Under the pieces are notes generated by a model, which saw only the letters and a list, made by a program, of their open reading frames with translations, did not search any database and was not told the DNA's origin. This document shows, piece after piece, positions 5,111 through 63,936 of a stretch of 64,000 nucleotides of DNA; within the stretch, counting starts at the first letter, position 1, and every line of letters starts with the position of its first letter. The position numbers and the translations under genes were made by a program. Source of the DNA: Octopus sinensis (taxonomy: Eukaryota); NCBI RefSeq assembly GCF_006345805.1, contig NC_043011.1, positions 13,652,464 through 13,716,463 of the forward strand. Reading direction: 5' to 3'.

Positions 5111-5305
5111 TTTATCATATGAACTTCATTGGCTTACAGGTGTTTCTGCTATAAGATGCAGCGTACTCATATTTGAGTGCCTGAGTAACATCTCAGATCT
5201 TCATCGGAGCCTCGAATAAGGTGTTACTCAGGCACTCAACTACGAGTCCGCTGCATCTTATAGCAGAAACAACTGTAAGGTAATAATGAAGTTCATAAGA
5301 TAATC
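5111..5305. repeat. Imperfect fold-back element containing a degenerate hammerhead motif
   Basis: Arms ~5111-5190 and ~5222-5305 are reverse complements. Minus strand 5211-5131 reads ggct-CCGATGA...GAAAC-acct-GTA-agcc. Confidence 0.7.
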
Positions 5306-5436
5306 GTTTATTTGTTTGTCATCACATTTTCTTAGTACTACTTTGTATTCGATTAACGCTTCGTTCTGAAGAATACGTGTATTGAGTTCTACACCAGGTT
5401 ATTAGTCTCGCAAAGGCCTAAGTGTGAGATATCCCT

Positions 5437-5648
5437 TTTTACCCTTTTACTTGTTTCAGTCATTTGACTGTGGCCATGCTGGAGCACCGCCTTTAGTCGA
5501 GCAAATCGACTCCCCAGGACTTATTCTTTGTAAGCCTAGTACTTATTCTATCGGTCTCTTTTGCCGAACCGCTAAGTTACAGGGACGTAAACACACCAGC
5601 ATCGGTTGTCAAGCAATGCTAGGGGGACAAACACAGACACACAAACAC
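5437..5648 (-). mobile_element. SINE family A, 3' half
   Basis: ttttacttgtttcagtcatttgactgtggccatgctggagcaccgcc matches the 3' end of full copies such as 43514-43984. Confidence 0.85.
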
Positions 5649-5880
5649 CTCTGTTAATTAAAGTAATAAATATTACCGCTTACTTCACTACCTACATGGT
5701 AAAATATCATGACAAATATTTTTTTCTCTTAAATTACACTTGTGTATTGCAATGTTAAAGAGTGATGTCTAAGCACAAACATCTAAGAATGTGGGAACGT
5801 TGAAAATATTTCTGTAATAGACACAAAAAAAAACAGAGTCGCCGGTTTCAAATAATTAAATATAAAATACTGTACAGACA

Positions 5881-6205
5881 TTACGGAGATGTACTTGCAT
5901 AGCAAGTGATTTGATCTGAGACCGTGTGCTGGAACGAAAGCAATTGCAGCATGGAAGGTGTTTGTAAGCCATTTAAGAAACACACAAAAGCCGTTCGATT
6001 CACTTCAACATTTAAGTTTAATTTGTCAAAATATTTTCGTCGCTATAAGACCGCGACCTGTTCACTGACAAAAATCCGTGCTCAGTGAACAGGTCGCGGT
6101 CTTATAGCGACGAAAATATTTTGACAAATTAAACTTAAATGTTGAAGTGAATCGAACGGCTTTTGTGTGTTTCTTAAATGGCTTACAAACACCTTCCATG
6201 CTGAA
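5881..6205. mobile_element. Fold-back insertion with 122-bp inverted arms (Penelope pLTR-like) and 12-bp TSD
   Basis: Arms 5947-6068 and 6082-6203 with a 13-nt spacer; direct repeat actgtacagaca at 5869-5880 and 6206-6217. Confidence 0.8.
6021..6075 (-). ncRNA. Putative type I hammerhead ribozyme, G3-C8 core variant
   Basis: Minus strand: tttgtca-GUGAACA-g-gtcgc(loop)gcgac-GAAA-a-ta-UUU-tgacaaa; 7-bp stem I, 5-bp stem II. Confidence 0.55.
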
Positions 6206-6589
6206 ACTGTACAGACAAAATATTTTAAACAGAACAGCACGACAAGGGAGATAATTACAATCTAGCACACCTGTAGTAATGTCCCTTATATGTAAACTCT
6301 GCAATCGTTCGCGTTTATTGTTTAGCTTCATCTTGAGAACAGCTGTAGACGAGTTAAACCTGACGGTCCAGTTATGTCGTCCTCTTTACGGTCTGTATGA
6401 CTGGGGCGATTCGAGTTAAAAAAAAAAAAGAAAACAAAAACCAGAACAGTAGATTACTATATAAGAGTGAGAGAAATTTGGCTGTTATAGGAGGTCAACT
6501 GACCTTTGGTACCGTTCACCGAATTGTAAATACAGGCAACATCTGCGTTACGGCGGTCTCTGGTTACGGAATATCACACTTAACGGAAA

Positions 6590-6835
6590 ATGTATGTATG
6601 TATGTGTGTGTATGTATGTATGTGTATGCGTTTTTGCGTGTGTATGTATATATGTACGTACGCGTGTGTGTGTGTGTGTGTGTGTGTATGTATGTATGTA
6701 TGTATGTATGTATGTACGTATGTATGTATGTATGCATGTATGTATGTATGCATGCATGCATGTATGTATGTATGTATGTATGTATGTATGTATGCATGCA
6801 TGTATGTAAGTATGTATGTATGTATGTGTGTAGAT
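6590..6835. repeat. (TATG)n/(TG)n microsatellite
   Basis: Seen directly. Confidence 0.95.
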
Positions 6836-7004
6836 TTGTATGCTTTCTGGTGCCAACCCAGCCACCAATCAGCAACAATAATATACGGCATGAAATAGAT
6901 TTAAGTAAATCCATTTCAAATAAAAAACACAATATGGCGTCCTTGTGTGTTTTAAAAACTGAATGAAATGTCTTTGATCTTAGGTCTACGAAGATTGACT
7001 TATT

Positions 7005-7215
7005 TTTATTTGTTTCAATTATTGGACTGCGACCCTGCTGGAGCAACACCTTGAAGGATTCCAGTCGAACAGATCGCCCTCCAGTACTTATTTTAAGTCT
7101 GGTTCTTATTCTATCGGAACTTTTTGCCGAACTGCTAAGTGACGGGGACGTAAACAACCTGACACAAATTTCAAACGGGGTCACACACACACACGCACAC
7201 ACACACACACACACA
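7005..7215 (-). mobile_element. SINE family A, degenerate 3' half
   Basis: gactgcgaccctgctggagc...tttttgccgaactgctaagtgacggggacgtaaaca. Confidence 0.7.
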
Positions 7216-60724: not shown

Positions 60725-61079
60725 ATATATATAATTGTTAAAGAGGACAACAAACGCAAAGGCAAGACAAATATCTCAAGTCATATACGTTATTATTATT
60801 GGAAAAATTTTAAAGTCTGTTTTAAAGCTGTTTCTGGGATATCCTAAAATATGGAATATTCCGTCATCAGAGACAAATAATAATTAGCAATTATATGTCC
60901 GTTATATCGGAAATCTAAAATGGTTCCATAATTCCCGTCTCGGCTATGGGCTTGGAGCTTTGATGATTCGTTACAGTACTTACGCATTGTACTTAGTCGT
61001 TTAGATCACCTGTGAACTAAAAACCCTTTTTTTTTTACAATTATATATATATATATATATACTATATATATATATATAT

Positions 61080-61596
61080 ACGATGGGTTTTTCTCAGTTT
61101 CCATCTACCAAATCCACTCACAAGTCTTGGACGTTCCGAGGCTTTAGGAGAAGGCACTTGCCCAAGGTGCCATGCAGTGACACTGAACCCGGAACTATGT
61201 TGTTGGAAAGCAAGCTTCTTACCACACAGTCACGCCTACGCCTATTAAAATGTTGTCAGTAGGTGGTTACGGGTATCGACCTCTGTACCCCTCAGATACT
61301 GGCTGACTACTCTACCACTAAGCTAAACAGTCCCTCACAAACACACACACACACACACCACACACACACACACACACACACACACACACACACACAACAC
61401 ACCACACACACACACACGCACACATACACACATGACAGACTTCTTTCAGTTTCCGTCTACCAAATCAACTCACAGGGCTTTGGTCGACCCACGGCTATAC
61501 TAGAAGACACTTGCCCAAAGTGTCATGTTAGTGGGACTGAACCCGGAACCATGTGTTTGGAAAGCAAGCTTTTTTCCATACAGCCACACCTGCGCC
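61080..61596 (-). mobile_element. Two SINE family A 5' halves
   Basis: Copies at 61080-61245 and 61432-61596. Confidence 0.8.
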
Positions 61597-62548
61597 CAAG
61601 TCAATAAATTTTAACTAACATTTTAACTAATCTTTAGAGACGAGAACAATCATTATTTAAATGATTAGTAAGATCTTTAGCACTATGTTAGCAATTTCAA
61701 GCATGTTTCGTTATTAGAAACAATGGTTCCTTTCTTAAGCTTTGCAGTCATTCATCGTTCAGTCTCAAAAACCTTGTATATCTCTCTCGCCACTCAGTTT
61801 TTCAGTTACAGCTATACGGCACTTCACTGATTAGCACAAATAATACTGAAACATGTCAACTGTATCGCTAGAGATCATATTAAATTTCAAGATTGCCTTC
61901 TATTTTTTAAACATAATTTAGCCATTTAGATAATTATAGTTTCCATCTCCAAGGGTATAATTTTCATTCATTAACATTTCTTAGCTTACTTTACCAAGTA
62001 TATTTGTGATTACATACACAGATATACATACATATATATATATAATATATATATATATATATATATATATATATAACTTGGAAGAAGACGCGTGGCGTTC
62101 AATCATATAATAGCAATTTAATAAATAAAACATATGCATACATACATATATGTACATACCTACATCTATATGTATATATACATGCATATATGGGTACAGA
62201 ACACCACAAAAAAAAACGTAGAACACAACGAGAAACGAAAACATAAAAACAAAAAACATGGAAACGGACTTTTTTTAACAACGAAAAAACAGAGTACAAG
62301 ACGAACAACACAAGGAACATTCCCCTTCTTCAGCTGCCCCTGTTTCGACTCATTGCGTGTTTCGAAGGTAATGTAGGTATGTACATATATCTATGCATGT
62401 ATGCATATGTTTTATTTATTAAATTGTTATTATATATATATATATATATATATATATATATTATATATATATATATATATATATATATATATATATATAG
62501 GTGAATTGAAGAAATGGAGCTGAACGAAGATTGAACAGAAATCGTTTT

Positions 62549-62639
62549 ATTTCATTCTACACGTGTTTCGAAAGGCACAATTTACCAAAATCCGATTGAA
62601 TAATGAGACCATATTGTGTCTTTCTCTTCAGGAAGAAAT
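62549..62639 (-). ncRNA. Type I hammerhead ribozyme with extended stem II
   Basis: Minus strand: atttcttc-CUGAAGA-gaaagacacaat...attgtgcctttc-GAAAC-acgt-GUA-gaatgaaat. Confidence 0.8.
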
Positions 62640-62747
62640 AGGAAATCCGTTGGAAAAAACAAAAACAGAAGAGAGGCGGAGCAAAACAAATCGAACTAGG
62701 CTCCTAAGAGCCCATGGCAAAACCATTTCACATAATATATATATATA

Positions 62748-63185
62748 TGAGTGGCTGTGTGGTAAGTAGCTTGTTTACCAACCACATGGTTCCGGATTCA
62801 GTCCCACTGCGTGGCACCTTGGGCAAGTGTCTTCTACTATAGCCTCGGGCCGACCAAAGCCTTGTGAGTGGATTTGGTAGACGGAAACTGAAAGAAGCCC
62901 GTCGTATACATATATGTGTGTGTTGTGTGTGTGTGTGTGTGTGTGTGTGTGTGTGTGTGTGTGTGTGCGTGTGTGTGCGTGTGTGTGCGTGTTTGTCCCC
63001 CTAGCATTGCTTGGCAACCGATGCTGGTGTGTCTATGTCCCCGTCACTTAGCGGTTCGGCAAAAGAGACCGTTAGAATAAGTACTGGGCTTACAAAGAAT
63101 AAGTCCCGGGGTCGAGTTGCTCGTTAAAGGCGGTGCTCCAGCATGGCTGCAGTCAAATGGCTGAAACAAGTAAAAGAGTAAAAGA
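62748..63185 (+). mobile_element. SINE family A
   Basis: Consensus match. Confidence 0.88.
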
Positions 63186-63204
63186 TATATATATATATAT
63201 ATAT

Positions 63205-63936
63205 AATTTCAACAATTGAGGGTAAAATTAATTAATTAATCAATTTCACCAAGTATTCAGTATGCAAAGGGACCATTTAAGGCGAATTCAAATTATTACA
63301 TTATATAAAAGGGCTTAGTAAAATAAATTACTTTGCCGCATACTGAACTCATTAGAAATAGCAGCTAAAAAAACTTTTTTAAAACTATTTCTAATACTTA
63401 AAGAAAACCTCTCTCATATAGTGTTTGCTCAATTCAACTCACGAAAGTATGGGGGTAGAGACATTAAAAAATCAAATGCAAAGGTTATTTGAGAACGTAC
63501 GTTTCAAGATTAGTCAAACTCGACACTTCTATCATCAGCTCAGAACTCCCTGGTTTGGATTTGAAAACACTGAAAGTGGGCGCATACCCTTTCGGCTTCT
63601 TATCGCTTCTGAAGATCTGCTCGAAACTAACAGTGCCAGCAAACTCAAAAATGCAAATAACCTTTGCATTTGATTTTTTAATGTCTCTACCCCCATACTT
63701 TCGTGAGTTGAATTGAGCAAACACTATATGAGAGAGGTTTTCTTTAAGTATTAGAAATAGTTTTAAAAAAGTTTTTTTAGCTGCTATTTCTAATGAGGTC
63801 AGTATGCGGCAAGTAATTTTTACTTAGCCTTTTATATACTGTAATAATTGAATTCGCTCTTCTTAATGGTCCCTTTGCATACTGAATACTTGGTGAAATT
63901 GATTAATTAATTAATTTTACCTCAATTGTTGAAATT
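63205..63936. repeat. Fold-back element with ~285-bp inverted arms and ~160-bp spacer
   Basis: 63205-63491 is inverted at 63654-63936. Confidence 0.9.
63490..63542 (-). ncRNA. Type I hammerhead ribozyme
   Basis: Minus strand: tgag-CUGAUGA-tagaagtgtcgagtttgactaatctt-GAAAC-gtac-GUU-ctca. Confidence 0.72.

Follow-up and report, generated by a model that had tools for sequence, protein, structure and literature searches.

Minimal hammerhead motifs and head-to-head fold-back insertions of Penelope-like elements in Octopus sinensis

Introduction

In a 64,000-nucleotide stretch of the Octopus sinensis genome (RefSeq assembly GCF_006345805.1, contig NC_043011.1, positions 13,652,464 to 13,716,463, forward strand; the window, at its full length), short motifs with the layout of hammerhead ribozymes recur, several of them within inverted repeats, or fold-backs. 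What carries these motifs, how do the fold-backs arise, and does the ribozyme have a part in making them? A sequence-only reading of the window had proposed a genome-wide population of Penelope-mobilised ribozyme mini-elements, in which hammerheads mark the apex of fold-back insertions and the palindromic stem III could act as a family-specific dimerisation code. Judged by their sequence, the motifs are the minimal type I hammerheads known from Penelope-like elements (PLEs), and they lie at the 3' ends of several families. The account that we hold to be probable places these hammerhead sequences in PLE 3' terminal repeats and takes the fold-backs as single head-to-head insertions, in which both cut target strands likely primed on RNA of one source.

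Hammerhead motifs in the window and the genome

The motifs were grouped into families A (6021 and 8021), B (5131), C (48280 and 49209), D (58174), E (62549), F (63490) and G (9864 and 37579), the seventh having been overlooked in the sequence-only reading. The copies with a type I layout and a palindromic stem III are given in Table 1; stem III reads AATATT in family A, which has a G3-C8 core, ACTCGAGT in C, ACATATGT in D, ACACGTGT in E and ACGTACGT in F. Family G combines a U3-A8 core with a 4-nt stem III, AATT. The diverse hammerheads with different palindromes that had been proposed are present, apart from some altered copies: those at 5131 and 48280 carry a U4-to-C core change, with the palindrome also broken at 5131, and those at 45108 and 60815 are decayed in the core or the palindrome.

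Our scan asked for the core, for stems I and II and for Watson-Crick pairing between positions 3 and 8, with no palindrome demanded. This descriptor gave 5 strict matches in the window, against 0-1 per shuffle (20 shuffles), and 27 matches in 80 evenly spaced 10-kb genome samples (799.7 kb), against 2-5 in five shuffles, bearing out a genome-wide population of motifs above shuffled density. Extrapolation from these samples gives about 80,000-90,000 intact motifs per genome (assembly 2.72 Gb; window 38% GC and microsatellite-rich). Stem III was palindromic in 18 of the 27 sample matches (controls, 0-1 per shuffle), and several of the non-palindromic ones look by eye like palindromes with single-base decay; reversed sequence gave 4 matches, 1 of them palindromic. 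When the palindrome was required, 221 matches were found in 2.0 Mb that targeted retrieval of loci had enriched for motifs, against 1 in reversed sequence, and 102 of these were unique, forming 23 clusters.

At the sequence level, the matches thus carry the minimal type I core CUGANGA/GAAA/UH with its 3-8 pair, stems I and II and, as counted above, a short self-complementary helix III. Predicted monomer folds contain stems I and II in families A, C and D; in E, F and the decayed copy of B the two stems are predicted in part. An Rfam scan of the window gave no hammerhead among the best 150 of 227 matches, those listed being microsatellite noise.

As a side observation, the U4-to-C core occurs in 14 of the 28 top family C copies (L031-L060; also at window position 48287). 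It may represent an inactive core variant of the family that is spreading, or a mutation hotspot.

Coding and non-coding carriers

The genome was searched with six families, and the 30 best loci for each were analysed, of 40 scored among 452-2023 candidates per family. Families A, D and E proved to be the 3' ends of protein-coding PLEs, since their upstream sequence runs into reverse transcriptase (RT) and/or GIY-YIG endonuclease coding sequence. In long family A copies (L292, L289, L291), a repetitive untranslated region of about 900 nt is preceded by a GIY-YIG domain (Pfam E 3.6e-4, slightly short of the curated cut-off) and an RT-like region, and across the terminal region these copies are 90-99% identical to one short copy. 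A decayed RT-endonuclease element within the window has family D as its 3' end, and other D copies share up to 1.7 kb of upstream sequence. Family E lies 3' of an endonuclease 40% identical to that of D, its RT being beyond the retrieved stretch. The order of RT, then GIY-YIG endonuclease, then ribozyme repeat was accordingly found in A and D, and the endonuclease part of it in E. Pfam gave no RT match in A and D, where the RT regions were recognised by motif.

Families C and F have another organisation: head-to-tail units of 351 bp and 558 bp, with longest open reading frames (ORFs) of 81 and 111 amino acids, and family F arrays of up to about a dozen units. They are non-coding, tandemly repeated and hold a single type I hammerhead in each unit, as in the retrozymes of the non-LTR type (LTR, long terminal repeat), which have been proposed as non-autonomous PLE derivatives (PMC7229834; bioRxiv 10.64898/2026.07.22.740005). 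Unlike those animal retrozymes, the F unit reaches 558 bp, against a reported 170-400 nt, and the motifs are minimal rather than canonical; both C and F show the PLE tail and inversion signature described below. Some copies of B and G extend upstream.

With coding sequence upstream of A, D and E and ORF-less units in C and F, the population is a mixture of 5'-truncated PLE ends and retrozyme-like tandem units. The mini-elements are therefore Penelope-associated, minimal and genome-wide, as proposed; that they form a new class is not supported, three families being 5'-truncated ends of coding PLEs and the inverted structure being published.

Of 5029 candidates from a genome search with the GIY-YIG domain, 150 were scored and 147 of these matched, their open frames reaching 883 amino acids, and five retrieved coding loci have their own palindromic hammerhead about 500-700 nt 3' of the endonuclease. 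Two further observations concern the carriers. Loci L172 (2674-6374), L173, L174 and L175 belong to a young PLE family with many near-identical 781-amino-acid RT plus GIY-YIG frames, preceded in L172 and L175 by a second, overlapping frame of 479 amino acids. At L182 (513-8867), about a dozen family F units form an inverted-tandem array, and another family's hammerhead lies just past it.

Anatomy of the fold-backs

With window copies and duplicate loci removed, an abutting inverted segment was found in 84 of 159 copies (A 19/29, B 6/29, C 14/27, D 12/26, E 16/25, F 17/23); 4 of the 84 are non-overlapping upstream inversions or internal duplication. Two fixed 3' ends were found, at +89/+149 (approximately) in A, +173/+217 in C, +42/+110 in D, +68/+218 in E, +196/+291 in F and +100/+152 in G, signed positions being relative to the predicted cleavage site (0); the two ends of a family are 45-150 nt apart. 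In 88 of 92 fold-backs, window copies included, a long-ended arm is paired with a short-ended one (A 19/19, C 15/15, D 12/12, E 15/15, F 14/15, G 13/16).

The insertions have the form of an inverted 5'-truncated copy with a tail at one end and the target-site duplication (TSD) of endonuclease-bearing PLEs. In family A, 11 of 19 fold-backs are flanked as a whole by a unique TSD of 11-15 bp (a twelfth match, of 10 bp, is doubtful), as are 2 of 15 in C and about 7 of 16 in G; fold-backs lacking one lie mostly within (TA)n. The arms differ by 0.5-3%, and their junctions mostly overlap by 0-10 nt. These features make it extremely improbable that the fold-backs are assembly artefacts or DNA transposons of the miniature inverted-repeat type. 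Such an origin could draw on the noisy distal right arm of the window's F fold-back and on one local tandem duplication that inflates the count, but it sits badly with unequal arms, their divergence, unique TSDs, variable junctions and continuation into RT and endonuclease coding sequence; opposite-strand joints also recur in contigs of independent public runs.

The two arms overlap in element sequence, and neither is consistently nested in the other. The short arm often extends further 5' than the long arm (L003, L009, L019, L024 and most C loci), so it cannot be a fold-back copy of the long complementary DNA (cDNA). This bears on a model discussed in PMC3846280, in which self-priming on an antisense template, or a folding back of the first cDNA, gives rise to the inverted arm. 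Some junctions, at which both arms start at nearly the same place, are small palindromes (L006, L014, L303, L317, L355), and the arms share alleles, as that model would have it; the two different fixed 3' ends and the lack of consistent nesting nonetheless make it very unlikely here.

The shared alleles were counted at non-CpG sites polymorphic within a family. Arms disagreed at 5 of 140 such sites, against 55.3 expected for random family members: 4/62 in C (26.9 expected), 0/32 in D (11.0), 0/13 in E (4.9) and 1/33 in F (12.5), the F set including short matches to an internal 30-nt palindrome (23/24 counted inverted). Family A had no usable non-CpG site. Taken together, the long/short pairing and the shared subfamily alleles favour priming of both target strands on RNA from one source.

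Proposed origin of the fold-backs

Under the one-source account, a dimeric RT-endonuclease would make a staggered cut in the target, priming would take place at the distal start site on one strand and at the proximal start site on the other, and both cDNAs would stop early and be joined through a few bases of microhomology. The apex would be the point where the cDNAs stop. That would bring it near the ribozyme, which lies 40-300 nt from the 3' ends; in A and G a further reason is the fixed point just upstream of stem I at which copies stop, likely an internal promoter's start site. The palindrome is probably retained because it lets two copies on a tandem transcript build the known double hammerhead; any role of it in insertion is hypothetical.

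Parts of this account have published parallels. Head-to-head inverted pseudo-long terminal repeats (pLTRs) with a one-sided tail and a TSD have been described (PMC3846280, PMC8557442), and work in vitro reports that RT starts at two sites on either side of the tail, that both strands are extended and that insertion proceeds when the ribozyme does not cleave, with the protein predicted to be a dimer (PMC11167929). The octopus fold-backs share with these the inverted 5'-truncated copy, the tail at one end, the TSD, the (TA)n preference and the two start sites. They differ from the published pLTRs in their tails, 45-150 nt against 30-40 nt, and go beyond them in the counted long/short pairing and allele concordance and in the fixed 5' boundary of A and G.

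Several points weigh against this account or narrow it. A coding parent was traced for A, D and E but not for B, C, F and G, and the window's own F fold-back has both arms long-ended. The allele concordance fits one RNA copied twice and two RNAs of one locus equally well. Best-scoring loci were analysed, and young copies dominate the sample because these were the 30 best of the 40 scored. The fixed A 5' boundary could also be read as a 3' splice site and is predicted to be able to pair with the short 3' end. Finally, the in vitro work, in the parts of the paper available, shows no start-site difference between the strands, against the strict long/short pairing in the genome (PMC11167929).

Where the apex lies

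The proposal that hammerheads mark the fold-back apex holds in family A and fails as a rule. Both arms begin in the motif or within 30 nt of it in 15 of 19 A fold-backs, 2 of 6 in B, 0 of 14 in C, 1 of 12 in D, 0 of 16 in E and 0 of 17 in F. The queries forced one arm to hold the whole motif, and the free arm is therefore the fairer test of apex position. The free arm begins in or beside the motif in 4 of 14 C fold-backs (3.2 expected from the motif's share of the unit) and 2 of 17 in F (2.7 expected); in D and E it does so in 3 of 12 and 4 of 16, where the start points range widely, between the 3' end and about -1000.

In family A, by comparison, the 5' ends of solo copies and of inverted ones are both concentrated at -52 to -63, with 9 of 10 solo copies beginning at -52 to -60 (p 0.47 against inverted copies). 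Among 15 A arms found without ribozyme selection, in flanks of other loci, 8 lie at that boundary, 2 of the 15 being the window's own arms, and 5 of 6 A inversion joints in independent contigs have one side at -60 to -55. Family G 5' ends lie at -37 to -47 in 28 of 39 arms, a one-base reference variant shortening some by a few bases. The apex adjoins the ribozyme in A and G because copies end there. An apex at the ribozyme is confined to families in which copies, inverted or not, stop 10-20 nt upstream of the motif; in four families the apex is scattered.

A check on 870 kb of unselected sequence gave the same picture: of 72 local inverted repeats, 1 had a descriptor match within 60 nt of the apex (0.35 expected), or about 6 of 72 if decayed copies recognised by eye count. 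Inverted repeats covering 2.9% of this sequence contained 6 of its 23 descriptor matches (3 loci). Ribozymes are enriched in fold-backs, as parts of PLE ends, but are not general apex markers.

Ribozyme cleavage could in principle set the apex, if cDNA ran off the 5' end of the cleaved 3' product and annealed to the other cDNA through stem I. Junctions lie at the cut site in two A loci (L005, L017) and one F locus (L081), and the inverted arm of the window's F fold-back begins at +2/+3. Yet only 3 of 84 inverted arms begin within 3 nt of the cut, about chance for a 7-nt window, and the A junctions are equally explained by 7-nt stem I microhomology. In the available parts of PMC11167929, no reads end at the cut site and cleavage is not required for insertion. 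We regard cleavage as a highly improbable determinant of the apex.

The A boundary resembles a branch point plus 3' splice site, and also an initiator (L030:1470-1495, L292:9430-9455). A predicted helix between it and the region just before the short 3' end ranks second-best of 280 positions; the same helix in family G is not at the best site. In independent contigs no joint skips to the putative A splice site, and such contigs cannot settle splicing or start sites. The Drosophila virilis repeat is reported to have an internal promoter and an intron (PMC2377424).

Stem III and the dimerisation code

Stem III self-complementarity is clearly maintained. Palindrome-keeping double changes separate related motifs, as in ACATGT/ACGCGT within one cluster and in ACAATTGT/ACGATCGT, which have an identical stem I. 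A code that pairs two RNAs of a family like a retroviral dimer signal, and so supplies the arms or separates families, would gain from these changes. It would also gain from the homoduplexes of five 8-mers, whose predicted energies of -7 to -11 kcal/mol compare with -3.6 or weaker in mixed pairs, and from the absence of any abutting mixed-family fold-back among 38 solo copies checked. The AAUAUU homoduplex of family A, however, is predicted near zero energy, and palindromes are shared between clusters at chance level. In 12 of 23 clusters the main palindrome is shared with another cluster, six palindromes each being main in two. In a separate count, 12 clusters had 9 distinct 8-mers against 8.6 expected if the 16 AC..GT 8-mers are equally probable, and common descent may account for some of the sharing. 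Several unrelated repeats carry the palindrome ACAGCTGT. If RNAs of a family paired freely, subfamily alleles should also be mixed between arms, contrary to what was found, and Naiad PLEs have the same inverted structures and, in the available parts of PMC8557442, no hammerheads. The palindrome thus favours homodimers in prediction, as suggested, but the case for a family-specific code is weak, and we think one unlikely.

A narrower version joins the palindrome to the insertion step: one RT-endonuclease dimer would act on two sister transcripts of one locus held together by stem III, each subunit starting at its own side of the tail, with the internal start upstream of the ribozyme in A and G giving a 150-210 nt mobile unit. 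This is something of a long shot; if true, the ribozyme would be a retrovirus-like RNA dimer signal in insertion.

Cleavage of hammerheads as dimers has been reviewed (PMC6765202). A fold-back sets two ribozymes on opposite strands and is accordingly predicted to bury the ribozyme in a hairpin rather than to aid dimerisation: in the structure predicted for the A fold-back, a hairpin of about 125 bp (-222 kcal/mol, z -37) takes up the ribozyme. This prediction agrees with the suggestion that fold-backs, if transcribed, would be a source of long double-stranded RNA, and perfect hairpins of more than 100 bp would then be plausible ADAR substrates. A-to-G differences in public-run contigs appear in a probable DNA run too and are uninformative on editing and cleavage.

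Features of the window

The features are collected in Table 1. The motifs at 48280 and 49209 belong to a single local duplication in tandem, with halves of about 930 bp that are 98.8% identical, so the five fold-backs originally counted represent four events; their arms are the sequence 3' of the motif, as claimed. The motifs at 8021, 58174 and 62549 lie outside fold-backs.

Table 1. Hammerhead motifs, fold-backs and PLE coding remnants in the window
Feature	Position	Strand	Details
Family B head-to-head fold-back	5087..5334	.	inverted repeat 5093-5322
Decayed family B hammerhead, minus arm	~5128-5218	-	U4-to-C, broken palindrome; intact relatives ACAGCTGT
Family A fold-back	5881..6205	.	long-ended minus arm and short-ended plus arm; inverted repeat 5941-6209
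12-bp TSD around family A fold-back	5869-5880 and 6206-6217		
Family A hammerhead	6021..6072	-	G3-C8 core, AATATT; type I
Second family A hammerhead copy	6081-6124	+	stem I shortened
Family A hammerhead	8022..8073	+	solo short-ended copy, no fold-back; type I
Family G fold-back	9864..10100	.	tail on one arm; inverted repeat 9864-10042; hammerhead remnant U3-A8, AATT
Second family G fold-back	37526..37832	.	inverted repeat 37579-37832
Decayed hammerhead-like remnant	45105..45175	-	stem III ACAGCTGT
GIY-YIG endonuclease fragment, other PLE	45234..45764	+	60% identity to a 780-amino-acid RT plus GIY-YIG ORF elsewhere in the genome
Family C insertion	47848..48536	.	inverted short arm and partial tandem; inverted repeat 47848-48491; hammerhead ~48279-48324, U4-to-C
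Tandem duplicate of family C insertion	48778..49465	.	inverted repeat 48778-49420; intact type I hammerhead 49208-49253(+), ACTCGAGT
Decayed family D coding region	54100..56230	+	RT with YRDD motif, then C-terminal GIY-YIG-type endonuclease
Family D hammerhead and short 3' end	58173..58289	+	type I hammerhead 58173-58251(+), ACATATGT; ~2 kb 3' of coding region; no fold-back
Small fold-back without ribozyme	59978..60084	.	repeat adjoins 3' side of ACAGCTGT motif at other loci
Decayed hammerhead-like remnant	60800..60875	-	
Family E solo copy, 5'-truncated	62491..62723	-	type I hammerhead 62554-62634(-), ACACGTGT
Family F fold-back (558-bp unit)	63202..63936	.	inverted repeat 63190-63949; type I hammerhead ~63490-63542(-), ACGTACGT

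Further observations were made in the window. The 3' half of a possible hammerhead remnant lies at 46110-46150, 3' of the endonuclease fragment. The distal right arm of the F fold-back (63810-63936) has many small indels, possibly an assembly consensus error, and the proximal 159 nt are 99% identical. Inverted repeats with no detectable ribozyme lie at 8214-8361, which has a relative in L212, and at 16476-16523. Non-LTR retrotransposon fragments occur at 31931-32680 and 24400-24825 (zf-RVT match, E 2.7e-8), with long (TCTA)n-type arrays and local duplications beside them at 29100-32100.

Discussion

The motifs agree closely with the minimal hammerheads of metazoan PLEs (Cervera and de la Pena 2014, PMC4209133): type I, with a short stem I, an extra nucleotide before stem II, a palindromic helix III and 3-8 covariation, in many families per genome, mostly as truncated single copies. 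Opposite-strand pairs occur in both, 100-700 bp apart in that work, which also describes dimers. They differ in the host genome and families, which are new here, in a stem II of up to about 70 nt, and in the core: U3-A8 was described there, and a young abundant family has G3-C8 here. Engineered G3-C8 is partly active (PMC11167929). Our literature search found no paper on octopus Penelope hammerheads or on Penelope twin priming; it covered subscription papers thinly, and motifs of octopus or molluscs may appear in supplements.

Ribozymes and inverted structure alike are already known; what the counted rules, long/short and same-source, add to the PLE insertion mechanism is modest and testable. 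The value of the sample lies in the very young PLE families that this genome holds, with copies up to 100% identical. The strict pairing and the shared alleles limit the ways in which PLEs can make their inverted insertions, a step left open by PMC11167929 and PMC8557442 in the parts available.

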